Source of the DNA: an uncultured Melioribacter sp.
GTDB lineage: Bacteria; Bacteroidota; Ignavibacteria; Ignavibacteriales; SURF-24
Assembly: GCA_964537965.1 (NCBI GenBank)
Contig: CAZIDB010000005.1
Span: 1-45,289 of the forward strand
Reading direction: 5' to 3'
DNA: 45,289 nucleotides
The notes below the pieces were generated by a model that made no database searches, was not told the origin of the DNA, and saw nothing but the letters and a program-made list of their open reading frames with translations. This document shows positions 3,374 to 45,144 of the stretch, piece after piece (the stretch's first letter is position 1; every line of letters begins with the position of its first letter). A program made the position numbers and the translations under genes.

Positions 3374-6300
3374 TTGAAGACTTTGAAAAATCTATTTCGC
3401 AATAAGAACCGGAAAGGGATTTCACTTATCTTTTTCTTCTCTGCCTTGTTGTGGATTTACTTATCAATTATGATGTCTTCACAGGATATTACTGATTCCC
3501 CGGTTTTCAAGAATATGTATTTCTGGAAGGATATTTTATTCCTTGTAATTCTTGCCCTGCTGTTCCTGCTTACGGTTATGCTGCGGACAGATCACACAGA
3601 ATACTTACAAATGCTGAAGCTGGATGGTAAGAACCAAACTACTGATGTTTTAGTGAACAATGCTCCGGTTGGCATTGCAGTTTTTAAGAATCAGAAAATT
3701 ATTTATATAAACTCAAGATTCGCATCAATGTTTGGGTATATGACAGTTGAGGAAATGTTAAGTGAAAGGATAGATAATATCTTTACTCAAACCGAGTCCG
3801 AAAAGGTACTGAAAATTATAAGGTCTTTAGAACAATTAGAACAGGAAGAAATTGAGTTCGAGTCTGTTTCAATAAATAAAACCGGTTTACAATTTCCTGT
3901 AAGCGTTACTCTTAAATCCAAAGAGTTAAATGATGAGAAAATAATTATCGGTTATTTCCAGGATATTTCAGACAGGGTACAGGCTGAAGAAGCTTATAAG
4001 TTGTTAAACTATGCTGTTAAAAGTATAAGTCAATGTGTAACTATAACAGATTTGAATAATCACCTGATTTTTGTAAACCAGGCGTTTACAAATCAATATG
4101 GTTATACCCGCGATGAGGTGGTCGGCAAACATATCAGTATTTTATTTGCCGATAAGACTCTTGATGATCGGGTTATAATAGAAGGAACCCTGCAGGGTAG
4201 CTGGAAAGGAGAAATTCTAAACCGCAAAAAAGACGGTAAAGTTTTTCCAATATATTTAACAACGGCAGTCGTCTATAATGAAAAAAATAATCCCATTGGG
4301 CTTATTGGCGTTAGTGATGATATAACGGAAAAGAAGAAAGCTGAAATTGTTTTAAGAGAGAGTGAAGAACGTTACCAGACCTTTATTAATACTCATAAGG
4401 ATTTAATCTTTATAAAAAACAATGAAGGCAGATATTTAGTTGTAAATAATCAGTTTGAAAAGTTCTTTGGAAAAGATAAAAGAGAATTCATAAATAAAAC
4501 CGATTATGACCTGTTTGACAAAGAAAAGGCAGACAACTTTTATCAATCGGACATAAAAACGCTTGCAACAAAATCAGTAATTGTAGAAGAACAGCTTTTT
4601 AATGATAAAATACTTGAAATAACAAAATTCCCGATGAAACTTCACGATGGTAAAATCGGGATTGGGGGAATGATTCATGACATTACGGTAAGAAAATCTG
4701 CCGAAGAACAACTTAAATATTCACTCTCTTTATTACAGGCAACTTTAGAATCTACTGTTGATGGAATACTTGTAACCGACAGCAAAGGCAAAATTACTCA
4801 TTATAATAAAAGATTTGTCGATATGTGGAGAATTCCCCAACACGTCATAGCAACGATGGATGATAATGTTGCGTTGGAATATGTTCATGAACAATTGGTC
4901 TCTCCTGAAAAATTCCATTCTGATGTAATGTCTCTGTATATTCAACAGGATAAGGTAAGTTCTGATGAATTGGAATTTAAAGACGGACGGATTTTCGAAC
5001 GATATTCCAAGCCTCAGATAATTGATGGTAAATGTGTCGGTCGCGTTTGGGATTTCCACGATGTGACTTCAGAAAGAATTGCCAAAGCAGAATTACAGAA
5101 TGTAAGTAATATGCAGGCTTTAATTCTTGACAACAGCGCTGTTGGAATTACTTATGTTAAGAACAGGATACAACAATGGGCTAACAGGCGAATGGCAGAA
5201 TTGTTCGGTTATGAGCAGAGTGAACTAAGCTCTATTCCTACCAGAGTTCTTTATAAAGACGATGATGAATATCGGAAAATAAGCGAAGAGGCTTATTCAA
5301 AGTTGCGGGAAAAGCGAAAAGTTGCACTTGAAATTGAAATGCGTAAAAAGGATAACTCCATTTTTATATGCAGAACAGAAGCAAAAGTATTAAATCCTGA
5401 CAACCCTGATGAAGGTTCTATCTGGATATTTGAAGATATTACAGAAAGTAAGCTGGCGGAAGGATCTATCCGGAGGAGCGAAGAAAGATTTCGTCATGTT
5501 ACTGAAAGCGCCGAGGAATGGATCTGGGAAGTAGATTTAAATGGCCTTTATACGTTCTCCAACCCTGTTGTTGAAAAAATACTGGGATACAAACCGGAAG
5601 AAATTGTTGGTAAAAGATATTTCTATGATTTCTTTCTGCCCGAATCAAGAGAATTTCTTAAAGACTTTACATTGAATATCTTTCAGCAAAAACAAACAAT
5701 AAGTAAACTTGAAAATCCGAACCTACATAAAAACGGAAGCATAGTATATCTTGAATCAAATGGTTTTCCTATTCTTGATGAAACAGGTAGACTTATCGGG
5801 TACCGCGGGGCAGATAAAGATATTACAGATCGTAAATTAATGGAAGACGGCTTACGAAAGAGCGAAAGAAAAATAAGGAGCATTTATTCTGCAGTTCCGG
5901 CCGGAATTGGTTTTGAAAACTATAAAAGATTTATTGAAGTGAATGATCACTTTTGTGAAATGGTAGGATATTCAAAAGATGAAATACTAGAAAAGGAAAC
6001 AAGAATTGTTTATCCCACGGATGCGGAGTATGATGCTGTAACTTATCTGTCGCATAAGTTACTTGAGGAAAAAGGAACATCTGAAATTGAAACAAGGTGG
6101 CAAAAAAAAGACGGCACCATTATAAAAGTTTTGCTTCGTCTTGAAACTCTTGAAGTTGGAAACACCTTTACAGGTATTGCATTTGCCGCACTTGATATTA
6201 CCGAACGAATCCGGTCTGAAGAAAAATTGAAACGCCGTGAAAGAGAATTCAGGATGATCTGGGAGAATTCTGTTGATGGTATGCGCCTTACCGATGAAAA

Positions 6301-9102: not shown

Positions 9103-10176
9103 ATGAAATCAATTTTAATAGTTGAAGATGATATTGAAATTCTTGAGAATCTTGAGATTCTTTTAGATGCCGAAGGCTTTAATGTTTATTCGGCAACAAA
9201 CGGGTTAGCTGCATTAGATAGACTTGAAACTGATCTGCCCGATCTCATCCTTTCCGATATTATGATGCCCTTTCTTGACGGGATTGAATTCTTCCGTAAA
9301 GTAAAAGAGAATAACAGAACAAAAACTATTCCCTTTATCTTTTTAACTGCAAAAAATGATTATGTCTCATTACGCCGGGGTATGAACCTTGGCGCAGATG
9401 ATTACATTTCAAAACCGTTCTCTACCGATGATCTTTTGCGCGCCATTAATATCCGGCTAGAAATAAGGAAAACAATAAATAAGCAGATTGAGGAAATGAA
9501 AGACAGCATCAGTAAGTTTTTACCCCATGAACTTAGAACCCCATTGGTTGCAATTATGGGTTATTCACAAATAATCCTCTCGGAAAATGATACAATTGAA
9601 AAAAAAGAAATCATGGATATGGTTGACCGGATTGATTATTCGGCTAAAAGATTATATAACAGAATAGAAAAGTTTATCCTTCATTCGGAATTAGATTCAT
9701 TAAACAGGAATGATATTCTTTTTGAAGATGATATTTGCCTTATAAATAATGAACTGATAAAAGAAGTCGCAGGCTTTCATCATTTACTTAGGGAAAGAAA
9801 TGGAAGTATTCAAACTGATATTGAGCCTGCAGTTGTGAAATTAAGCAGCCGGTTATTAAAAATTGTAATAACCGAACTGATGGAAAATGCCGTTAAGTTT
9901 TCCAGACAGGATAGTCCTGTAATAGTGATCGGGAAAAGAGATAATAATTTTTATTCGCTTAATTTTAAAGATTATGGTGTCGGGATGGACGATTCTCAGA
10001 TTCAGCGTATTATTCCTTTCCAAAAATCTTACGGGCTGTCAAACCAGCAGGAAGGTAACGGATTAGGGCTGGTTATTATTAAGAAAATATTAGAAGGAAT
10101 TAAAGGCGAAATAAATATTGAAAGCTCTAAAAACAGTTACACGAATATAACCGTAAAATTACCATTGGATTTATAG
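9103..10176 (+). CDS. Hybrid REC-histidine kinase (N-terminal receiver, HisKA, HATPase)
   Basis: 357-aa ORF. REC (ILIVEDD, LILSDIMMPFLDG) is clearly paralogous to the REC of the LytTR regulator (shared IPFIFLTAK...LGADDYI.KPF). H-box PHELRTPL, N-box ELMENAVKFS, G1 DYGVGM, G2 GNGLGLVIIKKI. Confidence 0.85.
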   Translation: MKSILIVEDDIEILENLEILLDAEGFNVYSATNGLAALDRLETDLPDLILSDIMMPFLDGIEFFRKVKENNRTKTIPFIFLTAKNDYVSLRRGMNLGADDYISKPFSTDDLLRAINIRLEIRKTINKQIEEMKDSISKFLPHELRTPLVAIMGYSQIILSENDTIEKKEIMDMVDRIDYSAKRLYNRIEKFILHSELDSLNRNDILFEDDICLINNELIKEVAGFHHLLRERNGSIQTDIEPAVVKLSSRLLKIVITELMENAVKFSRQDSPVIVIGKRDNNFYSLNFKDYGVGMDDSQIQRIIPFQKSYGLSNQQEGNGLGLVIIKKILEGIKGEINIESSKNSYTNITVKLPLDL

Positions 10177-24623: not shown

Positions 24624-25985
24624 TCAGGAAAAATACGTTCTCTCTCTGAAGTTGACGCCAATTACTTCCTCAGCAAACTTTTTCGCTTTTTCAATATCAA
24701 TTTCATCTAATCCAACAACTGACAAAGTCAGTCTGGAAAATTCTTTTACTTTCTTAGCGAAGTCTATCATCTCATCAAACATTTCCGGTGCTACTCTCAT
24801 AAGATTTGCATACTGTACTTTGTCTGTACTGTTCAGGCTTATCGATACTTCATCAATCAAGCCTTTAAACTCGGGAGTAATATCGCGTTTATTAATTACG
24901 TTTCCATGTCCATCGGTATTGATTCTTGTTTTGCCGCCGTTAGCTTTAACGTATGCTGCAATTTCTTTACAAACCTCCCATCTAATTGTCGGTTCACCAA
25001 AACCGCAGAATACTATCTCATCATAATTCTTTGGGTCACCAATTTCTTTTATGTATGTCTCAGCAGGAGGTTCCTGGCTTTTAGTCATCTTTAAGTTGTA
25101 ACCTTTAACAGTAGCGTCACCTTTTCTATCGCAGAAAACACAATCAGCATTGCATCGGTTTGTAACATTAATATAAAGTGAATTCCGGATTTTGTAAGTG
25201 AAAGTCAGTTCCGGCAATTTTCCAATGCCGAAAAGTTTAAACGCATTTAATGAAGTTGAGTTTGCAACATCTTCAACCGAGAGGTTTTGTATCTCGGCAA
25301 TTTTCTCTGCAACTAATTTTACATTAGATGGTTCGTTTCTTAATCCGCGATGTGGAACAGGCGTCATAAACGGAGAATCTGATTCAAGTAAAAGATTATC
25401 CACCTGAATTGATTTTACTATCTCACGTAATGTGTCTGCTTTCTTGAAAGTAATATTACCGGTAAAAGATAAATAATGCCGCATTTCAATCAATTCTTTT
25501 GCGTCCTGTATAGTACCGGCAAAACAATGAAACTGACATTTTAATCCCGAGTCATTATACGATCTTATGATTCTCATTACATCGTCATTGGATTCGCGGT
25601 TATGAACTACCACGGGCAGGTTTAATTTAAGCGCAAGATTAATCTGATCTTCAAATACTTTAAGCTGTTTTTCTTTTGGAGAAAAATCGTAGAAATAATC
25701 GAGCCCAATCTCTCCAATTGCAACAACCTTTTTATTTTGAGCTAAACTTTCAAGATCATTGAGATAATTCCCATTTAAATCTTTTGAATCGTGTGGATGA
25801 ACGCCGATAGTAGCATAAATATTTTCATACTTTTCTGCAAGTGCTACTGCCTGGCTTGAACTTGCAAGGTCTGTTCCGGGTACAATTATATAATCTACAC
25901 CGTTTTCAAAACTGCGGTTAATTACTTCTTCTAAATCTTCATTAAAATTTGGATAGAAGAGATGAGCGTGAGTATCAATAAACAT
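24624..25985 (-). CDS. Fusion protein: TatD-family metal-dependent hydrolase (N-terminal) + TatD-associated radical SAM domain (C-terminal)
   Basis: 453-aa ORF. TatD motifs FIDTHAHL, GEIGLDY, VVHNRES, FHCFAG and LLESDSPF occupy aa 1-255. Then NVTNRCNADCVFCDR gives a CxxxCxxC (codons at 25131-25154), followed by FCGFGEPT. Confidence 0.8.
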   Translation of the reverse strand: MFIDTHAHLFYPNFNEDLEEVINRSFENGVDYIIVPGTDLASSSQAVALAEKYENIYATIGVHPHDSKDLNGNYLNDLESLAQNKKVVAIGEIGLDYFYDFSPKEKQLKVFEDQINLALKLNLPVVVHNRESNDDVMRIIRSYNDSGLKCQFHCFAGTIQDAKELIEMRHYLSFTGNITFKKADTLREIVKSIQVDNLLLESDSPFMTPVPHRGLRNEPSNVKLVAEKIAEIQNLSVEDVANSTSLNAFKLFGIGKLPELTFTYKIRNSLYINVTNRCNADCVFCDRKGDATVKGYNLKMTKSQEPPAETYIKEIGDPKNYDEIVFCGFGEPTIRWEVCKEIAAYVKANGGKTRINTDGHGNVINKRDITPEFKGLIDEVSISLNSTDKVQYANLMRVAPEMFDEMIDFAKKVKEFSRLTLSVVGLDEIDIEKAKKFAEEVIGVNFRERTYFS

Positions 25986-26364: not shown

Positions 26365-28536
26365 TTAAAAAGTTACTTCTAAACTTAGCGAAATATTTCT
26401 AATTGGTGAAAGATTACCGATCATCTCGACATAATAATAATTCAAAAGGTTATTGGCATTTAAATTCATTTTGAAAGGGAGATAGTTTATAATAAAAGTA
26501 TAACCAATCCGCGCATCCCATAAATAAACAGGAACACGTTTATCTCCGTCTATTACAACGCCAAGATCTATAATCTCATTATCAATTTCTTCAACTCTGC
26601 TCCAGAATCTGAAATTCGATTCTACTTCGAACGATGCAAAAGTGTAAATTGCAGAAGCATAAAATGTATGCCTTGGTCTGTACTTAAGCATCTTTTTCTT
26701 TTCCACATCTCTTGCCCAGAGATAAGTATGATTCAAATTAAGTTTAAGCGATGAATTAAACAGTACATAATTCAATGTTGTTTCAAATCCCTGGATTCGT
26801 GCTCTTGTAACATTATCAAAGAAAACCTGTCCGTCAGTCAGATCGATTCCCGGTTCAATGAAATCATAAAATTCATTTTGAAAAGCCGAAACATCAAGAA
26901 TTAAATTATCAAGACAAACCTGGTTTATTCCAACCTCAAAAGAGTAATTATACTCAGGAATAAGCGAAGGATTTGGTTTTATTACAACTCCGCTTGCCGA
27001 AGTTTTTGTATAAGCTTCTGCAAGCGTTGGTGCCCTGAAGCCTTTGCCTGCCGATGCTCTTAATATGGTTGTTTCATAAAATTTATAATTCAATCCTATT
27101 TTAGGAGAGAATGAACTGAAGTTATCAATTGAATCTAATTTGCTGTAATCAAACCTTGCCCCGGCAGAAATTAATAACGGGAAATCAAACTTCAAATCAA
27201 TGTGTGAGTAAAAACCAAATCCGGAAGACGAGTGTTGGCTGAAAATATTCGATTTAACTTTTCCGTAACTTGCTTCAACCCCATTAATCCAGAATAAATT
27301 TTTATTGAAGTTATAAGTGGATTGAATTTCCGCGCGGCCTAAGCCGGCTCTTGAATCATCATTGCTTTCTGTTTCATCTCGCCAATGTGTATTGTAGTAA
27401 CTTACTTTTGTATTAAGCGAAAAATCATTTGAGAAAATTTTGTTGTACATAAGTCCAAGCATATATCTGTCAGAATAAACACGCTGACCCTGGTCAATAT
27501 CCCTTGGTTGTAAAGCGCTTCTTATACTTTTCCAGTAAATAAAATTGCCCCTGTTCTGGGTTAAACCGTTCGCCAAAAGAGTAACAGTATTTAAACTATC
27601 AATGTTGTAAGTCGATTTTAAGTAACCGGTGTATCGCTTTACAAAACCAGATTGTCTGTAGCTTAAATCTTCAGTTCTTGTGCCGGATAATGTGAATCCA
27701 AGTTTCCCAACTTTTTGCGAATGAGTTAAAGTAAGTCCGTTAAATGTTCTGTATTCACCGGACCAGTCCCATTCTTTGTAAGAAGGTTTATCATAAGCAC
27801 CGAAGTAAGATTTAAAGTAGGTGATTGGTTTATCAGTAATTTCTCTCGTAATAATATTGATTACTCCGCCAATTGCTGTTGAACCATATAAAGAACTTGC
27901 AGCGCCCTTTATAATTTCAATCCGTTCAAATTCTGTAACAGGAATAATTTCCCAGATAATTTCACCGGTATCGCCGGTGTATAATGGTATTCCATCTTGG
28001 GCAACTAAAACTCTAGTTCCGGCTCCTCTTGAATAACCGCTTGAGCCACGGATGCTTATCTGGTCCAAATTAATTGATACTCCCGGAACGTGTCGCATTG
28101 CTTCATCCAATGAAATAAAGTTACGATTGTTAACCTGCCGGTTACTTAAAACAAACGTACTTACAGGAAGCTCCGATATTTTTTGTTCGTGTTTACCTGC
28201 GGTTATAACTATACTCTCTGATTGAATTATCGCTTCTTCCAACCAAACATTTATTGTTATTGATTGATTTGAAATGATAATATTATTTCTGATTTCCTTT
28301 TTATATCCGACAATTGAGAATTCTAAATTATAACTTCCTGCCGGGAGATGAGAAAAACTAAAATTGCCGGAAGAATCAGTATGAGTTCCGGTTGATCTAT
28401 TCTGAAGAAAAACATTAACCCCAGAAATGGGATTCAGATTAATATCCGTTACTTTGCCGCTCAAAGAAAAATCCTGTGAGTAAATAATCGAAACAGTACA
28501 AAAGTAAATCAGGCAGATAATTTTGAACATCTTCAT
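26365..28536 (-). CDS. TonB-dependent outer-membrane receptor with N-terminal carboxypeptidase-regulatory-like domain
   Basis: Signal peptide MKMFKIICLIYFCTVSIIYS. CarboxypepD_reg-like region (LSGKVTD...PISGVNVFL), plug region (DEAMRHVPGVSI...IRGSSG) and a beta-barrel ending ...LSLEVTF. I place the start at the ATG at 28536. The track ORF extension to 28575 would overlap the upstream gene. Confidence 0.85.
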   Translation of the reverse strand: MKMFKIICLIYFCTVSIIYSQDFSLSGKVTDINLNPISGVNVFLQNRSTGTHTDSSGNFSFSHLPAGSYNLEFSIVGYKKEIRNNIIISNQSITINVWLEEAIIQSESIVITAGKHEQKISELPVSTFVLSNRQVNNRNFISLDEAMRHVPGVSINLDQISIRGSSGYSRGAGTRVLVAQDGIPLYTGDTGEIIWEIIPVTEFERIEIIKGAASSLYGSTAIGGVINIITREITDKPITYFKSYFGAYDKPSYKEWDWSGEYRTFNGLTLTHSQKVGKLGFTLSGTRTEDLSYRQSGFVKRYTGYLKSTYNIDSLNTVTLLANGLTQNRGNFIYWKSIRSALQPRDIDQGQRVYSDRYMLGLMYNKIFSNDFSLNTKVSYYNTHWRDETESNDDSRAGLGRAEIQSTYNFNKNLFWINGVEASYGKVKSNIFSQHSSSGFGFYSHIDLKFDFPLLISAGARFDYSKLDSIDNFSSFSPKIGLNYKFYETTILRASAGKGFRAPTLAEAYTKTSASGVVIKPNPSLIPEYNYSFEVGINQVCLDNLILDVSAFQNEFYDFIEPGIDLTDGQVFFDNVTRARIQGFETTLNYVLFNSSLKLNLNHTYLWARDVEKKKMLKYRPRHTFYASAIYTFASFEVESNFRFWSRVEEIDNEIIDLGVVIDGDKRVPVYLWDARIGYTFIINYLPFKMNLNANNLLNYYYVEMIGNLSPIRNISLSLEVTF

Positions 28537-28537
28537 T

Positions 28538-29047
28538 CTAATTACCTCCGGGCGGCTGTGGCGGAGGATTATCAAAATCGCAGATGAAATTTATATTTCC
28601 TGTAAACTCATTATCTTTTATTATCAACTTACCGGGATTCAGGCTGTCATTCTCAGTATAATAAATTCCAACCACAATCCAGTCTTTTCTGCTAATTGAA
28701 ATTTCCGCAGTCTTTGATTGTGCGACAGCAACGTAAGAATACTCACCCGGTTTAATTTCAATTAAAGGATTTTTTGCTGAGCTATAATAAACCGAACGTG
28801 TATTGTTTGGAATAGAATCACTGACAAAACCAAGATTGAATGCATTAAAATCGCCTATAGAATTAAGCGGATTTTTAAATGCCACAACGTGAGTGCGTGT
28901 AATTCCCTGTGGCCAGTTTCCTTTAAAAGTAATTGTTCCTCCGAATCCTGTGTTTGTTTCAATCACTTCCGGTTCAGGTGAAATTCCTAATCCGCAGCCG
29001 ATGAATAAAACTGCAAATAAAAGTATTATGGTAAACTTAAATTTCAT
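28538..29047 (-). CDS. Lipoprotein of unknown function, co-transcribed with the TonB-dependent receptor
   Basis: 169-aa ORF with lipobox LFIGC. Its stop lies 1 nt before the receptor start. The C-terminus is Pro-rich (NPPPQPPGGN). Confidence 0.6.
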   Translation of the reverse strand: MKFKFTIILLFAVLFIGCGLGISPEPEVIETNTGFGGTITFKGNWPQGITRTHVVAFKNPLNSIGDFNAFNLGFVSDSIPNNTRSVYYSSAKNPLIEIKPGEYSYVAVAQSKTAEISISRKDWIVVGIYYTENDSLNPGKLIIKDNEFTGNINFICDFDNPPPQPPGGN

Positions 29048-29200: not shown

Positions 29201-32143
29201 TTAGGCAAGTTTAAATTGCTGCAGAATGTGGTAAAGCATTCTGCCATCAATAAGGCAGAAATGTTTATTGTTAATACCAAGATATTTTTTACATGATGGA
29301 GAAAAAATTCCGGAAGTAATGATGAATGCTTTGGATAAATTTTTATAATCCGAGAACAAGGAAATAAATTCCTGCAGATCTTCACTGTTAATCGTTTTCT
29401 CAGCGCTAATAAGGAATAAGGCTGATTCTTCCGTTTTACCAACAAGACGAGTCCCAACAGCTACATCATCTTTTTTATCTTCCTTATATTTTAAAAACTT
29501 CAAGCTGCCGAATCCCAGTTTAACAAGAAACTTTTTCACAGCTTCTCTTAAATCGTCCTGTTGAAGTTTAAGGTAATCTTCAAATGTAATTTCAGGATTA
29601 ACGGAGGTTACTTCAATCATCTCCTGCGCTTTAATGTTGAAAAGTGAAAGCAATTCTTCAGTTGGAATTAAGTCAGATAAAACCGAAGGAGTGAAGCCTT
29701 CGTATACTTTAAGCTGCATCAAACCGCTTTTGGATAAAAGCATATAAATTTTTTCTACAATTGTATCTTTTGTAAGATAAGAATAGATATTAACTGGTGT
29801 CTTTCCGCTCATCTCTATTTTATCCTCAAGCTGCGATACAGATGCAGGATTCCAGGAATGATCGAAATGAATGATTGTCGAAAAATCTCCCGGCTTGAAT
29901 TTCTTCTGGACTGCTTTTGAATCAAGAAGGAAAACGCGGACCTTGCCGGACTTAAAAGCCTGTGTGGCCTTTTGAATAGAACCTTCCTGCATACCGATTT
30001 TTATTAGAGAATAATCAATTCCGTTACTTTGTAAAAGTTTTTCAAGCTTATCAAGCCCGTATTTCTCATACTGGGAGAAGATAAGGATTCTTTCTTCCGA
30101 GTGTAGTAAATAATCCAACAGGTAATCAGCCTTGGGATTAGTAAATTCCCTGGAAGCAAAGTTGCATACCTGCATAAGCTGGTTTATCAGACTGAAAATC
30201 TGCGGGCGTACTATATAATAATTCCCACGTTCAATTGTTGAGTAAATTTTTACTTCAGCTTCCTGGATTGCAATATCATATTCTTTAAGTTGTTCTTCTG
30301 TAATGTTAAACCATTTGTTGTGGAAAATCTTTAACGGTAATTGCTGCTGAACTTCTTCTTTCTTTCTTTGAAGTATATAAGAATTCAATTCATCTTCAGC
30401 CGGTTTGGCAGAAAACAGTGTGGTAATAAGCGACTTGAAATTATCAACAATCAGATTCGCTTCATCGTGTACTTTATTTGACAGCAACCAAAGATAGTTC
30501 AGGCTGCTGAAAGTAAAAATTCCTGTAATAAAATTTATAGCTTTAATTTTCTGGAATGAATCAATAACAAGGCAGTCAAATTTTGCAAACTGTTTAGAGT
30601 TAATGCTTTCTGCTTCAGCATTTTCCTTAAGAAGTTTGTAATCGATAATTGCAACATCAAATGCTTTTCTTTGCTTAGAAATTTGTTCGGTTGAGGAAAT
30701 GACATTAACCTTAAGTTCAGGGGCAAATGTATTAAATAAACCTTCCCAGCCTTCCGGATTTCCGCTTGAGTTAGTTAGAAATGAACTGCCGATATCAAAA
30801 CTATCAGAAACGATAAGCGCTTTTTTAATTCTTCTTTTGGAAAGAAGAATTTTTAAAGCATAAATTGTCTGAACAGATTTACCAAGACCATGATCATCTG
30901 CAAACAAGGCGAAGTTATTATTTATAAGAAACTGAACTCCATCTTTCTGGAATTGATAAAGACCTTCCACCTGGTTAGTAGTAAACTCCAGGTTAAGCTT
31001 TTCCATACTTGAAAGTACAGGGAAAGCAGCCGTACTTTTTACAATTAAATCAGGTTGCTTCCAACCTGCAAAATCAAGGGTTATTCTTGAAACGAGCGAT
31101 GACGCTTTATAATTAAAAATCCATGAAGAAGGAATCGTTTGTATATTAGTGTCAAATGAAAATGAAACCGGGGTACTCATTAGTCTGCTTTCAAAAGACC
31201 AGTAATTGTAAGTGAACATGCTTTCCTGTGCAGATAGCTGAAGTTTGTTCAACTTATAAACTTTCGCCTTTGTCAGTCCTTCGATTGATGGTATTTCAAA
31301 TGAAGCTACTTCTGATTTTCTGTGAAGCCCGGAGAAACTGTAATCATAAATTGTCGTACTGAATTTTTCAACATTAAGCAACTTAATATTATAAACTGTT
31401 GTTGGCGGGGTAAGCAGGTTTTCAGAAGCAGTAATCGATTCAAAGAAATATTTTGAAGTGGTTTTATCGGTTATAAACTTAGCGTCTTTTCCGGTCTGCA
31501 ATAAATTCTCTGACAAGTTCTGCTTTTGTATAAAATACTGTTCTTCAGATATTACATCGGTAACAGCTCTATCGATACTTATCTTCCAACTGCTTAGCTG
31601 TTTCATTTGATCTATGAATCTTAATTTATCCTGGAAGCTAAAAGTATCTTTTATTGACTTATTAGAATCATCAAAAGAATATAATCTTTTGGTAAGAACA
31701 GGTTTTACTTTATGTTTGAAGTTATAAATTCCCGGAGTTTTGAAATACTCTTTAAGAATTGTTGTATGAACAATTTCTGCTTTTGTTTCAGAGGGAGTTA
31801 AATTTTTACCGACTTCCGTTTTTACAAGTACAAAGAAAAATCTTTCTGTCTTAGCCGGTTTAAATATTGCGCTTATATTTTTAGTTGCCTTGGCAAGAAG
31901 GAATTTGTTGAAAACCTTTTTGTCAAATAATCCGCGTGAATAAACAAATGTAGTGGCATCAAAAGTTTTAGTCGGTTCAAAAGATGAATCTAATGACGTT
32001 TGCTTGATTTTTTTTACAGGTGGGAAATCAAACGTCCTTTTTTCTATTGTGGGCTTTTTAAGCCACCTATTCCAATGCCAATCGTCTGGTCTGTCAATTT
32101 TATCAATTGACTCCGCGACTTTCAGCCGGGCTTTTTTAAGCAT
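29201..32143 (-). CDS. SNF2-family helicase-like protein with degenerate catalytic motifs, unknown 390-aa N-terminal region and C-terminal Mrr-like (PD-(D/E)xK-type) domain
   Basis: 980-aa ORF. The SNF2 scaffold is recognisable: motif I ADDHGLGKSVQ (GLGKS at 30875-30889), WEGLFNTFAPELKV, LQRKKEEVQQQLPLK, ILIFSQY and IIHFDHSWNP. Motif II reads VIDSFQ instead of DExH/Q (DSFQ at 30551-30562). Motif III TGTP is replaced by SNKV. Motif VI reads QLEDKIEMSGK instead of QAxDRxHRIGQ. C-terminal aa 860-975 follow an Mrr_cat-like pattern (LGFGS...DDVAVG...FLISAEK...AFIITSGIFS...CLIDG). Confidence 0.7.
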   Translation of the reverse strand: MLKKARLKVAESIDKIDRPDDWHWNRWLKKPTIEKRTFDFPPVKKIKQTSLDSSFEPTKTFDATTFVYSRGLFDKKVFNKFLLAKATKNISAIFKPAKTERFFFVLVKTEVGKNLTPSETKAEIVHTTILKEYFKTPGIYNFKHKVKPVLTKRLYSFDDSNKSIKDTFSFQDKLRFIDQMKQLSSWKISIDRAVTDVISEEQYFIQKQNLSENLLQTGKDAKFITDKTTSKYFFESITASENLLTPPTTVYNIKLLNVEKFSTTIYDYSFSGLHRKSEVASFEIPSIEGLTKAKVYKLNKLQLSAQESMFTYNYWSFESRLMSTPVSFSFDTNIQTIPSSWIFNYKASSLVSRITLDFAGWKQPDLIVKSTAAFPVLSSMEKLNLEFTTNQVEGLYQFQKDGVQFLINNNFALFADDHGLGKSVQTIYALKILLSKRRIKKALIVSDSFDIGSSFLTNSSGNPEGWEGLFNTFAPELKVNVISSTEQISKQRKAFDVAIIDYKLLKENAEAESINSKQFAKFDCLVIDSFQKIKAINFITGIFTFSSLNYLWLLSNKVHDEANLIVDNFKSLITTLFSAKPAEDELNSYILQRKKEEVQQQLPLKIFHNKWFNITEEQLKEYDIAIQEAEVKIYSTIERGNYYIVRPQIFSLINQLMQVCNFASREFTNPKADYLLDYLLHSEERILIFSQYEKYGLDKLEKLLQSNGIDYSLIKIGMQEGSIQKATQAFKSGKVRVFLLDSKAVQKKFKPGDFSTIIHFDHSWNPASVSQLEDKIEMSGKTPVNIYSYLTKDTIVEKIYMLLSKSGLMQLKVYEGFTPSVLSDLIPTEELLSLFNIKAQEMIEVTSVNPEITFEDYLKLQQDDLREAVKKFLVKLGFGSLKFLKYKEDKKDDVAVGTRLVGKTEESALFLISAEKTINSEDLQEFISLFSDYKNLSKAFIITSGIFSPSCKKYLGINNKHFCLIDGRMLYHILQQFKLA

Positions 32144-32145
32144 CT

Positions 32146-32676
32146 TTATTCGTCAATCTTCTGCAGGTGAACTTGTTCGCAGGCAGTTTTCAACCTGTCG
32201 AACGGTTCAATTAAATTTCTTAATGCAGAAATCTGTCCAAGCTTTTCTGCTATTTCAGGCAGCTCAGATGAAAATTTCTTTACCGTATCGATGAATATCC
32301 CTGTATCTCCCGGTAATTTTACATTGTCTTCACCTGACTTTTTGCCTTTTGCCGAGCCTTCATTGTCTTTATAAAGACGGACAGCACGAACACCCTGCTT
32401 GTTGTTTATACCTAAGAATAACGGATCTCTGAGAAGAATGAGATCGAGGTCATCTTTAATAGCGCCAAGTAAAGGAAGGGCAATAAGTTCAACAAGTATA
32501 TGTTCAAGCAGAACATCACCGTATAAAGTTTTCTGGAAGTTCGTTGGTTTTATTGGTGCAGTAACTCGGAATTCAAGAGGTTTAGTGTCTGGGTCAGTCA
32601 CAAGGATTGCGCCCATAACACCGGAGTTATCATCAAAGGTATAGGTTTCTAAGAATGCAATTCTTACTAAGTCCAT
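32146..32676 (-). CDS. Hypothetical 176-aa protein, translationally coupled partner of the SNF2-like gene
   Basis: ATG at 32676 is preceded by AGGAGAACAA. The track ORF extends to 32739 without comparable support. The stop lies 2 nt before the SNF2-like start. No signal peptide or TM segment. I recognise no family signature. Confidence 0.65.
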   Translation of the reverse strand: MDLVRIAFLETYTFDDNSGVMGAILVTDPDTKPLEFRVTAPIKPTNFQKTLYGDVLLEHILVELIALPLLGAIKDDLDLILLRDPLFLGINNKQGVRAVRLYKDNEGSAKGKKSGEDNVKLPGDTGIFIDTVKKFSSELPEIAEKLGQISALRNLIEPFDRLKTACEQVHLQKIDE

Positions 32677-32971
32677 TTGTTCTCCTAAAAATGTAATTAT
32701 GATGAATAATCGAAAAAAAAATGAATTAGTTAAATACAAATTTTACATTACAGCAAAAATTCTTTTTGGGAATTTTTCCGGAAATATATCCTTGGCCGGT
32801 ATTTAATATTCTAATAATTACTCTCTTATTTACCAAATTAAATTACTGGAAGCAGATGGTGCAAAGAACAAATCAATTTTTTAAAACTATCAATCCAGGA
32901 TCAACTTCAGATGGAATTTAATCTGGTAAGTCAGACTAAAACAGAAGTTGCATTGTGCCGTTCATTAATAC

Positions 32972-39861: not shown

Positions 39862-42084
39862 ATGAATATAAAACTAAAGAAACAAACTTCATCTAAAAGC
39901 CCATTCTTACTTTTACTCTTATTCTTACTCTTCTCCATTTTACCGTCGGGTATTTATTCTCAAACAATAATCGCAGCAGATGATCCTAACATACAGTATT
40001 TCGGCAGATGGGATTTTGCAGATCCTTTAGCTCCAACTCACTCCTGGCCCGGCGTTTATATCTATGTTGAATTTGAAGGTACAAGTATCGGCGTTAAGAT
40101 GAATGATAATTTTGATTACTACAATGTTATAATCGATGATACAATACTGACTGTATTTCATGGAACAAATTCGGGAATATCATCTTATACATTAGCGTCC
40201 GGTTTGCCGGAAGGACAACATTCAATTTTATTCGTTAAGCGTAGTGAAACCAACTGGACTAAATTTTCTTTCAATGGTTTTATACTTGATAATGGTAAGA
40301 CTCTTCTTCCTCCAAAAGAAAAACCAGTTAGAAAGATTGAGTTTATCGGCGATTCGTTTACCTGCGCTTCCGGTAATGAATGGACAGATAATTCCGCTCC
40401 TTCGAATGTTGAGAAGTACACAAATATTTATGAGGGTTTTGGTTCCATAACCGCAAGACATTTTAATGCCCAGTATGTTTTGTCAGGTCGTTCTGGTTAC
40501 GGATTAGTACTTGATTATACTGGTAATTACGAAGGTAACCTGCCGGATGTTTTTGACAGGACGGTATTGATTGCAGAAAATCCGAAATGGGATTTTGAAG
40601 GGTGGGTTCCAAATTTAGTGGTTATTTGTCTTGGCTTAAATGATTACTCGGGCTTCGGCGGTTATTCATCAACTGTTGCCCAGGATAAAACTGATTTATA
40701 TAAAACGAGATACCATGAATTTATTGCTCAGATAAGAGATGTTTATCCAGGAGTTAAAATACTTACAGTAGCTGCCCACGTTGAATGGATTCAGAATACG
40801 GTACAGAAAGTTGTGCAGGAAGAAAACGAAAGTGGAAACAAGGATGTATTTTATACTTACTTCCCTTACTACAACGGTGGCTATGTAAATAACGGTCACC
40901 CGAATGTAGAGACTCATCATAAAATTGCCGAGAGATTAATTGCTGCTATTGATACAATAAATGCCTGGGAACCTTATGTTGATAATGTCCCTCCTGAAAT
41001 TGTAAAACTACCGGTGTCACCTTTTACTGTTTACGATACGACTTATACTTTAGAGGTGACAACAGATTCCTATTCAACCTTAAGATACAGCACTGCCGAT
41101 AAGCCTTTTGATGAAATGGAAAATGATTTTACTGTAACAGGCAAACGTGAACATTCAGTTAAAATTTCCTGTGAACATAACCAGCAGTACACAATTTATA
41201 TCAGGGCAGAAGATTTAAATGGAAACGCGATGAGTTCATCCGCTGTAGTTCAGTTTGATGTTGATACAACTAAAATACTTTTAAGCTGGCAGGCTCCCTG
41301 CTATGATGCTTCCTCATGGAAATCCGGACCTACACCAATGGGCACGGTTGGAAAAACAGGTATAAAGACTGAACTGGCTTCGGTTACTACTGCTTACTTC
41401 AGAAAGAAATTTGAAATTCAGAATTATGAAACCCTTATTGGTTTTGGTTTGATGATAAAAGGAAATGATGGTGCGGTAGTTTATCTTAATGGTCATGAAG
41501 TAGAAAGAATTAATATGTTTACCGACGAAGAAGTTCTCTATAATACACTTGCAATAGAACCGCAGAATATGACCAAAATGGTGGTTATAAATTCAGCCAA
41601 AGGATTGGACAAACTTCATAATGGTGAAAATGTGGTAACTGTTGAAATTCACTCCAGTAATTCTGCAGCACCGGGTTTGTTGTTTGATTCACAGCTGTTT
41701 GATAACACAAACAAAATTTATTACAAGCTTGGTTCGGACTGGTCTTATTACGATGCGGGCAATACTCCTGAAGATCAGCTTACAAACAAAACGACGGATG
41801 TTGCTACCCCATCTGTTCCTGTTGAAACAACTTTACATGCAAACTACCCGAATCCTTTTAATCCGGAAACAAACATCTCATTTTCACTAAAAGAAAAAAG
41901 CAAAGTTGAATTGAAAGTCTACGATATGCTGGGAAAAGAAGTTTGTGCTCTTACTGATAAAGAATTAAATCCAGGGAGACATAGCTATAAATTTGATGCC
42001 GGTAATTTATCGTCGGGAATTTATTTTTACAGGCTTAAGACAGGTTCATTTATTAGCTCAAGAAAGATGATCCTGATTAAATAG
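39862..42084 (+). CDS. Secreted SGNH/GDSL hydrolase (CE2-like carbohydrate esterase architecture) with extra beta-sandwich domains and T9SS C-terminal sorting domain
   Basis: 740-aa ORF with a signal peptide ending IYS|Q. N-terminal beta-sandwich region. SGNH blocks FIGDSFTCASGNE, SGRSGYG, CLGLNDY and NNGHPN. A jelly-roll-like region (AYFRKKFEI...DGAVVYLNGHEVER). T9SS CTD NYPNPFNPETNISF...GIYFYRLK. Confidence 0.75.
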   Translation: MNIKLKKQTSSKSPFLLLLLFLLFSILPSGIYSQTIIAADDPNIQYFGRWDFADPLAPTHSWPGVYIYVEFEGTSIGVKMNDNFDYYNVIIDDTILTVFHGTNSGISSYTLASGLPEGQHSILFVKRSETNWTKFSFNGFILDNGKTLLPPKEKPVRKIEFIGDSFTCASGNEWTDNSAPSNVEKYTNIYEGFGSITARHFNAQYVLSGRSGYGLVLDYTGNYEGNLPDVFDRTVLIAENPKWDFEGWVPNLVVICLGLNDYSGFGGYSSTVAQDKTDLYKTRYHEFIAQIRDVYPGVKILTVAAHVEWIQNTVQKVVQEENESGNKDVFYTYFPYYNGGYVNNGHPNVETHHKIAERLIAAIDTINAWEPYVDNVPPEIVKLPVSPFTVYDTTYTLEVTTDSYSTLRYSTADKPFDEMENDFTVTGKREHSVKISCEHNQQYTIYIRAEDLNGNAMSSSAVVQFDVDTTKILLSWQAPCYDASSWKSGPTPMGTVGKTGIKTELASVTTAYFRKKFEIQNYETLIGFGLMIKGNDGAVVYLNGHEVERINMFTDEEVLYNTLAIEPQNMTKMVVINSAKGLDKLHNGENVVTVEIHSSNSAAPGLLFDSQLFDNTNKIYYKLGSDWSYYDAGNTPEDQLTNKTTDVATPSVPVETTLHANYPNPFNPETNISFSLKEKSKVELKVYDMLGKEVCALTDKELNPGRHSYKFDAGNLSSGIYFYRLKTGSFISSRKMILIK

Positions 42085-42093
42085 AAATACGGA

Positions 42094-45000
42094 ATGATGA
42101 AACCGAAATCTGTTTTATTGTTTTGTATTTGGATTTTTATGGAAACCTGCACTGCCCAGGTTTCCAAAGTTTATATTAACGAGATTCTTGCTTCTAACAC
42201 TTCAACAAATGTCAGCTATGATTTTTCCGAGTATTGCGACTGGATTGAAATAGTAAATTTCAATCCGATAGTAATTGATCTTTCCGGGTATTATTTAAGT
42301 GATGATACAGCAAATCCTTATAAATGGAAAATTCCGGATCATTCACTAATTGGTTCAGTAAATGCCAAATTATTCTGGGCTGACGGCAGAGATACTCTTC
42401 TCCATACAAATTTCAAACTTGATAAGGAAGGAGAATATATTGGACTGTACGATCCTTCCGGTAATGTGGTTGATTCAATAACATTCGGGCAGCAGAAAAA
42501 TGATATGTCCTTCGGCAGGCTTTCGGGTGATATTAATTCATGGGGGTATTTCTCTCATCCAACCCCGTTAAAAATAAATAGTGCAGAATACATTAATGGC
42601 TTTACTAAAGAACCGGAATTTTCATTTAAAGGAGGATTTTATAAAGGGCATCAGCAATTATCTTTATCCTCAAATGATCCGTCTGCAGAAATCAGGTTTA
42701 CCACAAACGGTACTCCGCCTGATGGTTCATCCGAACTTTATACTAAACCAATAGAGTTGGATTCAACCACTGCAATAAGAGCAAAAGCTTTTTCAGAAGG
42801 AATGGTACCTAGCGAAGTTGTAACACAAACTTATTTTATAAATGAAGAGATTGATCTTCCTGTTGTTTCTATTGTAACAGACCCGGGTAACTTTTTTGAT
42901 GATAAAATCGGAATTTATGTCACCGGAACAAACGGCACTTACGGCGAATGCGATCCTAAAATTCGTAATGTAAACCAGGACTGGGAACGCCCGGTTAATT
43001 TTGAGTTTTATGAATCAACAGGTGAACAGAGAATTAATCAGTTGGCAGGAATAAAAATTTTCGGCGGCTGTTCACGTACAAGGTATCCGCAAAAATCTCT
43101 GGCGCTGTTTGCTCGTAGCGATTACGGTAAAAGTTCATTTGAATATAAATTTTTTGCTGATAAGAATATTGATAAATTCGAATCCGTTTTATTGCGAAGT
43201 GCTTCTGATGACCAGGTCTTTACAATGTTCCGTGATGGATTGGCTCACACTATTCTGTCAAAAGAACTTGATATTGATTATCAGGCATTTCGGCCGGCTG
43301 TGGTTTTTCTGAACGGAGAATACTGGGGCATTCACAACATAAGGGAAAAAATTAATGAACATTATTTTGAAGAGAATTTTAATGTTCCGGCAAGTGAAAT
43401 TGATCTGCTGGAAAGGAATGCAAACATTCTTACCGGTACTGCTACTGCATACAACAATATGCTGAACTATGTCAGATCCAAGGACATGGCTCAGACTGTT
43501 CATTATGAATATGTTAAAACATTGATGGATGTTGATCAGTATATAAATTATCAAATAGGTCATATCTATCTTGCAGAAAGAGACTGGCCAGGAAATAATA
43601 TAAGATTCTGGAAAGCAAACTCGGGTAACTATAAAAAATGGCGCTGGATTAATTACGATATGGACCAGGTTTTTATTTATACAACTACAAATTCAATTGC
43701 TGTTGCTGCAGCTTCAAACGGACCAAACTGGCCTAATCCACCATGGTCAACCCTGCTGTTCAGAAGACTATTAATGAACAAGGAATTTAAAAATAAATTT
43801 ATCCAGAGATATGCTTATTTAATGAATACGCTTTTTGAACCCGGTAATGTAATTCAATATATCGATAGCCTGCAGAATATAATTGCCAAAGAAATTCCAA
43901 GACATATAACCAAATGGGGCGGTAAAGTTGATCCGGATTTTAGTGAGGTGGGATGGACGCCTGAACCAACATTTAATTCTGTTGAGGAGTGGAATGAAAA
44001 TGTTGAAGAACTTAGAGAGTTTGCCGGAGAAAGACAGAACTATTCCTGGAAACATATGATGGAGTATTTTAAAATAAGTGATACAGTTTGTATTACAATC
44101 TCATCCAATATTCCGGAAGCAGGTGAAGTAAAATTTTTCAATTGGCAAATACATGAACCTGATTTGAAAGGTAAATACTTTAAAGGAATTCCTTTTACTG
44201 TTGAAGCCGTGCCTTACTTTGGTTACAGGTTTTTATACTGGAAGCATGGTGATTCAACAAAACACAAATCGTGCATAGAAATAATACCCGACAAAGATTC
44301 TTTGCTAATAGTTTACTTTGAGAAGGAAGTGTTAAGCGATAGTAACCTTGTCATTATAAATGAAATAAATTATAACTCATCAGATTTGTTCAATAGCGAA
44401 GATTGGATTGAGTTATACAATAGGAGGTATGCACCTGTTAATCTGTCTGGCTGTATATTGAAAGATGAAAATGAAGAATCTCCTTTTATTTTTCCTGAAG
44501 GCACTGTGATTGGAGCCAATAGTTTTTTAGTCGTTTGCAAAGATACTAACTCGTTCAATTCATGTTTCCCGTTGGTAGCGAATAAGACAGGTAATTTAGG
44601 TTACGGCTTAAATAATAAAGGTGAAGTTGTAAGATTGTATTCTTCTAATGGTTTGCTTATAGATTCAGTTCATTACGATAATAAATCCCCCTGGCCCGTT
44701 GAGGCTGACGGTACCGGTGCAACATTAGAACTAAAAGCTCCGATGCTTGATAATAATTTACCAGGCAACTGGATTTCTGCTGCAGGTAAATATGGTACAC
44801 CAGGATACATAAACTCAACATTAATGGAAGTTGAATCCGCTAATCCGGATGCCAATCCAACTGAATTTATACTTTACCAGAATTATCCGAATCCATTTAA
44901 TCCAACAACAAAAATAAAATATACAATCCCAGCCTCCCTAAATCCCTCCCAAGGAGGGACTTTAATATCATTAAATGTATATGATATTCTTGGGAATGAA

Positions 45001-45144
45001 GTTATAACTATTGTTAATGAAGAACAACCTGCGGGAGAATATGAAGTAGAGATGAACGGAAGTAAATTATCAAGCGGAATTTACTTTTACCAGCTAAAAG
45101 CCGGAAGTTATGTTCATACAAGGAAATTAATTCTCCTTAAATAA
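42094..45144 (+). CDS. Secreted CotH-family protein with two lamin-tail-like domains, chitobiase/Hex C-terminal-like domain and T9SS C-terminal sorting domain
   Basis: 1016-aa ORF with a signal peptide ending CTA|Q. LTD-like segments (VYINEILASN...DWIEIVN... and VIINEINYNS...DWIELYN...). A CHB_HEX_C-like segment (EIRFTTNGTPPDGSSELYTKPIELDSTTAIRAKAF). A central CotH-like region (FRDGLAHTI...GEYWGIHNIREK...NNIRFWK). T9SS CTD NYPNPFNPTTKIKY...GIYFYQLK. Confidence 0.7.
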   Translation: MMKPKSVLLFCIWIFMETCTAQVSKVYINEILASNTSTNVSYDFSEYCDWIEIVNFNPIVIDLSGYYLSDDTANPYKWKIPDHSLIGSVNAKLFWADGRDTLLHTNFKLDKEGEYIGLYDPSGNVVDSITFGQQKNDMSFGRLSGDINSWGYFSHPTPLKINSAEYINGFTKEPEFSFKGGFYKGHQQLSLSSNDPSAEIRFTTNGTPPDGSSELYTKPIELDSTTAIRAKAFSEGMVPSEVVTQTYFINEEIDLPVVSIVTDPGNFFDDKIGIYVTGTNGTYGECDPKIRNVNQDWERPVNFEFYESTGEQRINQLAGIKIFGGCSRTRYPQKSLALFARSDYGKSSFEYKFFADKNIDKFESVLLRSASDDQVFTMFRDGLAHTILSKELDIDYQAFRPAVVFLNGEYWGIHNIREKINEHYFEENFNVPASEIDLLERNANILTGTATAYNNMLNYVRSKDMAQTVHYEYVKTLMDVDQYINYQIGHIYLAERDWPGNNIRFWKANSGNYKKWRWINYDMDQVFIYTTTNSIAVAAASNGPNWPNPPWSTLLFRRLLMNKEFKNKFIQRYAYLMNTLFEPGNVIQYIDSLQNIIAKEIPRHITKWGGKVDPDFSEVGWTPEPTFNSVEEWNENVEELREFAGERQNYSWKHMMEYFKISDTVCITISSNIPEAGEVKFFNWQIHEPDLKGKYFKGIPFTVEAVPYFGYRFLYWKHGDSTKHKSCIEIIPDKDSLLIVYFEKEVLSDSNLVIINEINYNSSDLFNSEDWIELYNRRYAPVNLSGCILKDENEESPFIFPEGTVIGANSFLVVCKDTNSFNSCFPLVANKTGNLGYGLNNKGEVVRLYSSNGLLIDSVHYDNKSPWPVEADGTGATLELKAPMLDNNLPGNWISAAGKYGTPGYINSTLMEVESANPDANPTEFILYQNYPNPFNPTTKIKYTIPASLNPSQGGTLISLNVYDILGNEVITIVNEEQPAGEYEVEMNGSKLSSGIYFYQLKAGSYVHTRKLILLK

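Follow-up and report, generated by a model that had tools for sequence, protein, structure and literature searches.

A small protein strictly paired with a degenerate SNF2-Mrr protein in Ignavibacteria: probable exaptation of a two-gene helicase-nuclease system

A stretch of 45,289 nucleotides (nt) of DNA from an uncultured Melioribacter sp. (GenBank assembly GCA_964537965.1, contig CAZIDB010000005.1, positions 1 to 45,289; hereafter the window) carries two adjoining genes on its reverse strand (−), a small gene encoding a protein of 176 aa and a large gene encoding one of 980 aa with SNF2-like and Mrr-like domains. The two genes are strictly paired across genomes, the large protein has lost its catalytic residues in the Ignavibacteria, this loss had a single origin and both genes are under purifying selection. 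The pair probably descends from a two-gene helicase-nuclease system that has not been described before, and would have lost its enzymatic activity and been exapted.

The small gene lies at 32146-32676 (−) and encodes 176 aa when read from its ATG. A spacer of 2 nt (32144-32145, −) separates its TAA stop codon from the ATG of the large gene (29201-32143, −, 980 aa), the junction reading gaa-TAA-ag-ATG. The original prediction, made from the sequence of the window, had placed the 176-aa gene 2 nt before the 980-aa gene and proposed a two-gene module; the coordinates and the junction agree with this and, as the gap is so short and the large gene has no Shine-Dalgarno sequence of its own, the module is a tight one in which translation is probably coupled. 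The open reading frame (ORF) of the small gene can be extended to a TTG at 32739. The ATG at 32676 was taken as the start because the equivalent Met (MDL/MEL) is where 35 of 35 homologues in the alignment start, and a Shine-Dalgarno-like AGGAG, read from the sequence, is found 5 nt upstream (32682-32686, −).

When the 980-aa protein was used as the query of a homology search, generic SNF2 candidates crowded the output and no more than six real relatives came up; co-occurrence of the two genes was therefore judged from loci found via the small protein. Close homologues of the latter number 414 and come nearly all from Ignavibacteria metagenome-assembled genomes (MAGs), with identities of 61-95%. 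Scanning one genome per GTDB species gave relatives in 166 genomes and the best 80 of these were inspected, nearly all being labelled Ignavibacteria, Ignavibacteriales, Ignavibacteriaceae, Melioribacteraceae or generic Bacteroidota/Bacteroidetes and one being titled 'Bacterium'. Wherever downstream DNA was present in the Ignavibacteria loci (79/79), a long ORF started at or near the stop codon of the small gene. The two genes overlapped in 29 of these loci, were 0-10 nt apart in 29, 11-30 nt apart in 16 and 31-100 nt apart in 2, with larger gaps in 3; 74 of the 79 gaps fell between −4 and +30 nt. The large protein of the window was matched by tblastn in 76 of the 80 loci. Clustering of the flanking ORFs gave the small gene in 80/80 loci and the large gene in 72/80, and the next commonest cluster, found in 13/80, was an antisense shadow ORF. 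No third conserved gene was found in these 80 loci or in 91 others.

The same arrangement was seen outside the Ignavibacteria. In each of the 11 loci looked up there, the small gene was directly followed by a gene for an SNF2-family protein (627-867 aa). Nine of these partners contained Mrr_cat, that of locus L166 matched SNF2 and Helicase_C without an Mrr match and that of L167 matched SNF2-rel_dom only. Nearly all of a further 80 metagenome loci with enough downstream DNA had the same gene order, and the commonest junction outside the Ignavibacteria was a 4-nt ATGA overlap. The pairing recurs in every related locus examined and is therefore far above chance, so that the co-occurrence in other genomes implied by the original prediction was found both within the Ignavibacteria and beyond them. 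Only the four or five genomes nearest to that of the window share its synteny with purM and with hrcA-grpE-dnaJ, from which it follows that the two genes move together among neighbourhoods of housekeeping genes. Two MAGs each have the pair on two contigs (L027/L029 and L032/L036) with near-identical proteins, which could mean that the bins hold duplicates from different strains or that the copies are true paralogues.

The large protein begins with a conserved N-terminal helix/Trp motif (aa 1-31, 32051-32143, −), defined by the conservation profile of 72 homologues, in which R6, K8, A10, S14, E20, F22, W24, KWL at 26-28 and P31 are conserved. A related basic helix is present at the N-terminus in all lineages. 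It is followed by an indel-rich region (aa 32-390, 30974-32050, −) that is poorly conserved in the alignment (conservation 0.15-0.39). Searches with the N-terminal 390 aa gave nothing in Pfam and only noise among PDB sequences. The median length of the large protein is 920 aa in the Ignavibacteria vs 791 aa elsewhere. What had been described as an N-terminal region of about 390 aa of unknown nature, rich in Lys, Ser and Phe, is thus mostly a clade-specific, poorly conserved expansion of which the first ~31 residues alone are conserved, and the compositional claim did not hold up, these three residues making up 31% of the region vs 28% of the whole protein.

The following region (aa 391-835, 29639-30973, −) has an SNF2-type two-lobe ATPase fold with degenerate motifs. 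Pfam gave SNF2-rel_dom at aa 399-535 (E 4e-13, 49.4 bits, cut-off 24.9) and Helicase_C at aa 671-773 (E 2.5e-10, 41 bits, cut-off 23.5), and the protein could be aligned to ISWI over aa 401-865. This alignment, together with the motif census described below, shows that motif I (Walker A) is kept as GLGKS (aa 419-423, 30875-30889, −). Motif II is DSFQ (aa 528-531, 30551-30562, −) in place of DEAH/DExQ, the IIDEAHRIK of ISWI pairing with VIDSFQKIK, and the catalytic Glu is gone. Motif III is LSNKV in place of (S/T)GTP. Motif VI is EDKIEMSGK (aa 773-781, 29801-29827, −) in place of (E/D)RxHRxGQ, MDRAHRIGQT pairing with LEDKIEMSGKT, and both arginine fingers are gone. The C-terminal domain (aa 859-972, 29228-29569, −) matches Mrr_cat (PF04471, E 1.6e-6, 28.6 bits, cut-off 21), and alignment with active homologues showed that it lacks D…(Q/E)xK. 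The SNF2 and Mrr-like domains first proposed were therefore found by Pfam as folds, with their catalytic residues missing. Within the clade the beginning of lobe 1, P-loop included, is conserved, as are GNP…Q…F…H.L.Q..NF, FSQYD and Y.I.FDQWW.P…WQ.E in lobe 2; aa 120-390 and the Mrr-like domain have low conservation across the class.

The extent of the degeneration was seen from a motif census of 47 large proteins from outside the Ignavibacteria and 72 from Ignavibacteria loci. The Walker A Lys was present in 47/47 of the former and 64/72 of the latter, and the Walker B Glu in 47/47 and 43/72. The motif III Thr, present in 47/47 outside, was found in 0/72 Ignavibacteria proteins. The first Arg of motif VI was present in 47/47 vs 6/72 and both motif VI Arg in 37/47 vs 0/72. 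In the Mrr domain, the Lys was found in 32/37 proteins outside and in 0/63 within the Ignavibacteria, and the Asp in 32/38 and 10/64 respectively. The nearest outgroups, L169, L170 and L171, whose small proteins are 47-52% identical, have large partners that are fully canonical. In a neighbour-joining tree of 125 small proteins (Poisson distances), the 72 with degenerate partners formed one split in 100/100 bootstraps and their sisters have active partners. The SNF2 and Mrr catalytic motifs are ancestral to those enzymes and this, together with the single split, indicates a derived degenerate state with one origin.

The large proteins outside the Ignavibacteria matched the PADLOC ZorD models strongly (E 1e-75 to 1e-83, over profile positions ~441-1065 of 1071), with DpdE and DrmD as the next-best models. 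Their best PDB sequence match was SsoRad54 (1z63, E 5e-58), with EcZorD (8qy7, E 8e-46) lower. As the best match is a generic archaeal SsoRad54 core, the SNF2 core of these active relatives is not specifically of the Zorya type. Their motifs read D(D/E)MG(T/L)GKT (I), DE(A/V/I)Q (II), (S/T)GTP (III) and QAEDR(A/V/T)HR(I/P)GQ (VI), with an Mrr site of D(G/K)G(I/V)D … QCK(R/H). Some of them lie among mobile elements or beside defence genes of the McrBC/BREX, type I restriction-modification or toxin-antitoxin kind: the pair adjoins McrBC, BrxC/PglY and GIY-YIG genes in L166 (1-7715), a type I restriction-modification system and SLFN/AlbA in L083 (1-4911), HEPN/nucleotidyltransferase genes in L084 (9959-10724), and IS elements and DUF3800 in L081 (10836-13054). 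An HNH protein is encoded near the pair in L165, and type I HsdR near it in five metagenome loci. The remaining look-up loci outside the Ignavibacteria have housekeeping neighbours. No member of the family was found in plasmid and phage collections searched by tblastn with a non-Ignavibacteria member, or in two IMG/VR scans, so that nothing points to its carriage by sequenced mobile elements, although these collections are poor in the relevant phyla.

Several variants were seen among the large proteins outside the Ignavibacteria. Nine of active type (L128, L133, L140, L141, L142, L145 and related proteins), those of the L128 type being ~830-918 aa long, have R…G in place of R…R in motif VI, which suggests a distinct subfamily. 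Nine sequences each, which may or may not be the same members, also have Q for the first Gly of motif I and a change of the motif VI 'H'. The large proteins of L090, L091, L096, L097, L100 and L107 (~682 aa) lack the Mrr domain and have kept all of the ATPase motifs. The L167 partner (627 aa) has kept only the P-loop, and L167 may be a second, independent degenerate lineage.

The small protein had been described as belonging to no recognised family. This was borne out at the level of sequence, as no match was found in Pfam, PADLOC, NCBIfam, PHROGs or PDB sequences (phmmer and profile), and Pfam gave nothing at E<=10 across 103 members of the family; it did not hold for the fold. When 1.84 billion representatives were searched with a profile, 1142 clusters (50% identity) matched at E<=1e-3, all of ~170-200 aa, and the members named beyond the Ignavibacteria include Candidatus Aminicenantes and Chloroflexi. 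An AlphaFold2 model, built from an alignment of 90 sequences, had a predicted local distance difference test score (pLDDT) of 87.3 and a predicted template modelling score of 0.84. All five models had pLDDT of 85-87, and an earlier, shallower run had given the same topology. The order of elements is beta-beta-beta-alpha-beta-alpha-beta followed by C-terminal helices: strands at 6-14, 19-27 and 33-38, a helix at 46-72, a strand at 79-82, a helix at 85-92, a strand at 98-103 and then, after a variable, low-confidence linker (~104-126), a strand at 127-130 and helices at 133-152 and 157-175.

When this model was compared with the PDB using Foldseek, the top 24 matches were all endonuclease V (EndoV) structures (E 4e-5 to 8e-4, query TM-score (TMq) 0.43-0.60), with E 3.8e-5 and prob 1.00 for the best of them. 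At lower ranks were the archaeal DUF99-type structure 2qh9, EndoV 3goc (rank 26, TMq 0.65), prokaryotic Argonaute PIWI and RNase H. The EndoV match was reproduced with two models of the small protein and, with root-mean-square deviations of 5.6-10 A, is a match at the level of fold only. A viral structure library gave only weak RNase H-fold matches. On this model, the small protein is predicted to have an EndoV/PIWI-type RNase H-like fold. The likeness to the EndoV, DUF99 and PIWI branch is confined to the fold: EndoV has no sequence-level relation to the small protein, its catalytic D-E-D-H positions are not conserved there, and neither Endonuclease_5 of Pfam nor the PDB profile search gave a match for the small-protein family.

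Among 90-103 diverse members of the family, P33, E35, F36, R37, T39, Q48, G53, P68, E157, P158, F159 and R161 are invariant or nearly so, and the motifs PxEFRxT (aa 33-39) and EPFxR (aa 157-161) are both present in the window protein. These residues do not coincide with the canonical catalytic positions. In RNase H-fold enzymes the beta1 position holds a catalytic Asp, and alpha1 is expected to hold a catalytic Glu. Across the family outside the Ignavibacteria the beta1 position is S, A or D, and the start of alpha1 is an invariant Gln (Gln48). Position 10 is Glu or Asp in 35/35 Ignavibacteria small proteins and Ser in the sister clade, and D84 and H170 are near-invariant in the Ignavibacteria clade; the acquisition of an acidic residue 10 by this clade is a lead rather than a finding. 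A family-wide D-D-H catalytic triad was considered and rejected, since acidic 10, acidic 84 and His170 occurred together outside the Ignavibacteria 5 times, 4.5 being expected. The small protein may be mainly a non-catalytic recognition or regulatory subunit. In one homologue, P0149 (279 aa), the variable linker contains an inserted domain that resembles the Ribosomal_L12 C-terminal one (PF00542, E 1.4e-7).

Selection on the two genes was assessed from the ratio of non-synonymous to synonymous substitution rates (dN/dS) against the closest genome, L001, which was 0.043 for the small gene and 0.086 for the large one. Within the latter it was 0.125 for the N-terminal part, 0.085 for SNF2 and 0.009 for the Mrr-like domain. 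Intact large ORFs of 678-1165 aa (median 920) were found in 71 species-level genomes despite identities of 24-33%. The large protein nevertheless evolves quickly in this clade. At a small-protein identity of 55-65%, the identity of the SNF2 core was 32% in the Ignavibacteria vs 66% elsewhere, where the core is thus better conserved than its small partner. Between L002 and the window the identity is 78% for the small protein, 76% for DnaJ, 73% for GrpE, 72% for PurM, 65% for HrcA, 54% for the TonB receptor and 28% for the large protein. Thus the small subunit is under housekeeping-grade constraint and the large one is constrained only as a scaffold.

The original prediction had found no match between the pair and any described layout, and comparison with known systems came to the same result, PADLOC giving no match for the small protein and, for the SNF2 core, only partial ones to ZorD, DpdE and DrmD. 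In its mode of action the pair would come closest to helicase-nuclease defence modules such as ZorD. This effector of type I Zorya degrades DNA in an ATP-dependent manner and requires its DEAQ box to do so (PMC11946911). In the PADLOC models it is an SNF2 helicase with an Mrr-like nuclease, and it resembles the SNF2 and Mrr portion of the active relatives of the large protein. However, zorA, zorB and zorC are not present at the window locus, the N-terminal ~440-500 residues of ZorD are unmatched, and the partner here is a 176-aa protein of predicted EndoV fold rather than ZorC. The window protein differs further from ZorD in that its arginine fingers, its catalytic residues of the Mrr domain and the DE of the DEAQ box are missing, and it matched the PADLOC ZorD profile only in fragments. 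An identity with Zorya was therefore rejected on the missing zorABC genes and the unmatched ZorD N-terminal domain. DpdE (Dpd) and DrmD (DISARM) share the SNF2-family helicase core. DpdE was the best PADLOC match of the window large protein (E 1.8e-24), in the C-lobe only (profile 910-1139 of 1176), and DrmD was weaker (PADLOC E 9e-4; 12.7 bits with NCBIfam DrmD, for which the cut-off is 610). As these matches are partial, the dpd and drm partner genes are not present and the small protein matches neither DpdD nor any other PADLOC model, Dpd and DISARM were also rejected.

In Hma, HmaA is an SNF2 helicase with a DUF3883/NOV_C PD-(D/E)xK nickase, and is accompanied by a methyltransferase and a DUF499 ATPase (PMC11232893). 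The likeness lies in the fusion of an SNF2 helicase to a C-terminal restriction-endonuclease-fold nuclease, there in phage defence (PMC11232893); the differences are that Hma has DUF3883 instead of Mrr_cat, consists of three genes and has no small EndoV-fold partner (PMC11232893). Hma was rejected because DUF3883 gave no match and HmaA gave only a weak C-lobe match in PADLOC, in the active relatives. The inactive short prokaryotic Argonautes of the SPARTA/SPARDA type also combine an RNase H-fold (PIWI-like) subunit lacking the conserved catalytic tetrad with a partner from the same operon, and short prokaryotic Argonautes were among the weaker Foldseek matches of the small protein. The small protein, of 176 aa only, differs from them in having neither MID nor APAZ, and the pair in having no TIR, SIR2 or nuclease effector; the resemblance would be one of fold and logic only. 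No RapA/HepA model was among the NCBIfam matches of the large protein, and no description of a pair of an EndoV-fold small protein with an SNF2-Mrr protein was found in the literature searched.

These results can be brought together in a proposed history. The locus would be a class-wide, inherited derivative of a widespread system made up of a small EndoV/PIWI-fold protein and an SNF2-Mrr translocase-nuclease. The form taken as ancestral is still found in Aminicenantes, Chloroflexi and many uncultured lineages, with a ZorD-like large protein that has all of the SNF2 motifs and the Mrr D…QxK. Its complex may have been a translocase-nuclease that was powered by ATP and acted on DNA, defence being a plausible role. 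The large protein of the Ignavibacteria lost its motif III, its arginine fingers in motif VI and its catalytic Mrr Asp and Lys when the clade arose, and many members, that of the window included, have lost the Walker B Glu as well. It gained its longer N-terminal region and kept Walker A, the lobe-2 scaffold and the N-terminal helix. Most likely the pair today would be a non-catalytic nucleic-acid-binding complex, ATP-binding at most, with the small subunit as its functional core and the large protein as a scaffold or adaptor. It would act without ATP-driven translocation or Mrr cleavage, the key activity lying in or around the small subunit, and could assemble via the helix that is conserved at the N-terminus of the large protein, a candidate docking site for its partner. 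The ancestral form may have had a role in defence, and the present form may have one outside it. The original prediction had offered a domesticated defence module and a conserved chromatin- or RNA-polymerase-associated factor as alternatives; the former is favoured by the evidence.

Several points count against this history. That the two proteins bind each other, and nucleic acid, is a supposition within it. The Walker A Lys in 64/72 Ignavibacteria proteins, 'DE' in 43/72 and a Lys at the first arginine-finger position in 28/72 suggest that some members could retain weak or non-canonical ATPase activity. The residue calls at the Mrr site rest on alignments of a very divergent region, one of which puts an Asp of the window protein in the column of the Mrr catalytic Asp. 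A defence role for the active relatives is suggested by ZorD-like similarity and by the minority of loci with a defence-island context, and the 166 species genomes with a match are a count without a denominator for prevalence within the Ignavibacteria.

Other explanations have to be weighed against exaptation. The pair could still act in defence in a non-canonical manner, the small EndoV/PIWI-fold subunit having become, or having always been, the effector nuclease or the sensor, while the dead SNF2-Mrr protein would only bind DNA and serve as scaffold or trigger. The small subunit shares its fold with nucleases (EndoV, PIWI, RNase H) and within the Ignavibacteria it has the acidic E/D10 at beta1 (Ser in the sister clade) with the near-invariant D84 and H170. 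Arms-race proteins often evolve fast, as the large protein does across the class. Against this stand the invariant Gln48 at the alpha1 position family-wide, the chance-level co-occurrence of acidic 10, acidic 84 and H170 outside the clade, the housekeeping-grade conservation of the small protein and a housekeeping locus with no adjoining defence genes in the window, which make this explanation rather unlikely. A broader version of the exaptation hypothesis is a little less likely still: that the whole class has a domesticated helicase-nuclease immune system in which the large protein is a pseudoenzyme scaffold, the small partner is a housekeeping-grade core whose acidic beta1 residue may carry catalysis or nucleic-acid recognition, and the active parent, with at least 1100 clusters in several phyla, is an undescribed two-gene defence system.

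A housekeeping role as a remodeller that runs on ATP, for example in recycling RNA polymerase in the manner of RapA/HepA, with the small protein as an accessory subunit, is improbable for the pair. The conservation across the class, the housekeeping neighbours, the SNF2 fold and the retained Walker A would all suit such a role. RapA-type function needs ATP hydrolysis, however, and the arginine fingers and, in the window, the Walker B Glu are missing; moreover, no RapA/HepA model of NCBIfam was matched, the closest relatives are ZorD-like nuclease fusions and the SNF2 core evolves far faster than in the active relatives. The architecture of SNF2, Helicase_C and Mrr_cat, and the partial PADLOC matches to DpdE, ZorD and DrmD, would suit an active SNF2 motor-nuclease defence module of the ZorD, DrmD or Hna type, as the comparison made in the original prediction implies. 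This is very improbable, since the Walker B Glu, motif III, both motif VI Arg and the Mrr D and K are missing from the window protein and are not kept across 72 homologues, the zorABC, dpd and drm partner genes are not present and the PADLOC matches cover the C-lobe only; with these residues missing throughout the clade, the large protein of the window cannot work as an SNF2 motor-nuclease like ZorD or DrmD. Finally, the large gene might be a decaying remnant beside a small gene that functions alone, as its lost catalytic signatures, its very low class-wide identity and the occasional copy that is shortened or split (L003 678 aa, L024 470 aa, L029 330 aa) could suggest. Intact large ORFs of ~900-1000 aa at 24-35% identity in ~70 species, which could not persist without selection, the dN/dS of 0.086 overall and 0.009 in the Mrr-like domain, and the conserved N-terminal and lobe-2 motifs and start/stop coupling largely refute this, and it is hardly credible. 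Exaptation of an inactivated pair therefore remains the preferred explanation.

The neighbours of the pair in the window are housekeeping genes (purM, hrcA-grpE-dnaJ, a lipoprotein, a TonB-dependent receptor, prmA, an M28 peptidase and men genes), and sensor kinases and enzymes secreted by the type IX secretion system (T9SS) are also encoded in the surroundings. No tRNA, Rfam family, integrase or transposase was found in the window by tRNA and Rfam scans and annotation, and no defence gene adjoins the pair, so that the housekeeping surroundings lacking mobile-element hallmarks are as first described. A scan of the window for sigma-70 promoters and terminators gave only background levels, as expected for an organism of the Fibrobacteres-Chlorobi-Bacteroidetes (FCB) group.

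Some other genes of the window deserve mention. A lipoprotein-like ORF of 169 aa without a Pfam family (28538-29047, −) shares 38 nt with the gene that follows it, for a TonB-dependent receptor (26365-28575, −), when the latter is read from its predicted TTG start, and these two genes are kept beside the SNF2 operon only in L002. A 453-aa protein (24624-25985, −) has a complete TatD_DNase (aa 3-253, E 3e-85) fused to Radical_SAM (aa 272-439, E 9e-16), which is an unusual combination. A sensor histidine kinase of 1603 aa with at least eight PAS domains (3374-8185, +) is followed by a hybrid response-regulator/kinase (9103-10176). At 39862-45144 (+), two adjoining T9SS-sorted (Por_Secre_tail) secreted proteins are encoded, a CE2/GDSL esterase (740 aa) and a CotH-kinase/lamin-tail-domain protein (1016 aa).

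If the proposed history of the pair is correct, the small protein would belong to a large, unannotated EndoV/PIWI-fold family (~180 aa) whose members, across many uncultured phyla, are obligate partners of SNF2-Mrr enzymes of the ZorD-like kind, and these pairs would be a candidate new helicase-nuclease defence system that is not in PADLOC v2. The Ignavibacteria would offer a natural case of pseudoenzyme exaptation, in which the enzymatic subunit was inactivated once and then held under purifying selection across the class, and which could be dated on the tree and compared with active sister lineages. The functionally critical part would be the small subunit and not the helicase-nuclease, which may be a guide to the small partners in other helicase-nuclease systems. 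The Ignavibacteria genes should then not be annotated automatically as 'SNF2 helicase/restriction endonuclease', or scored as defence.

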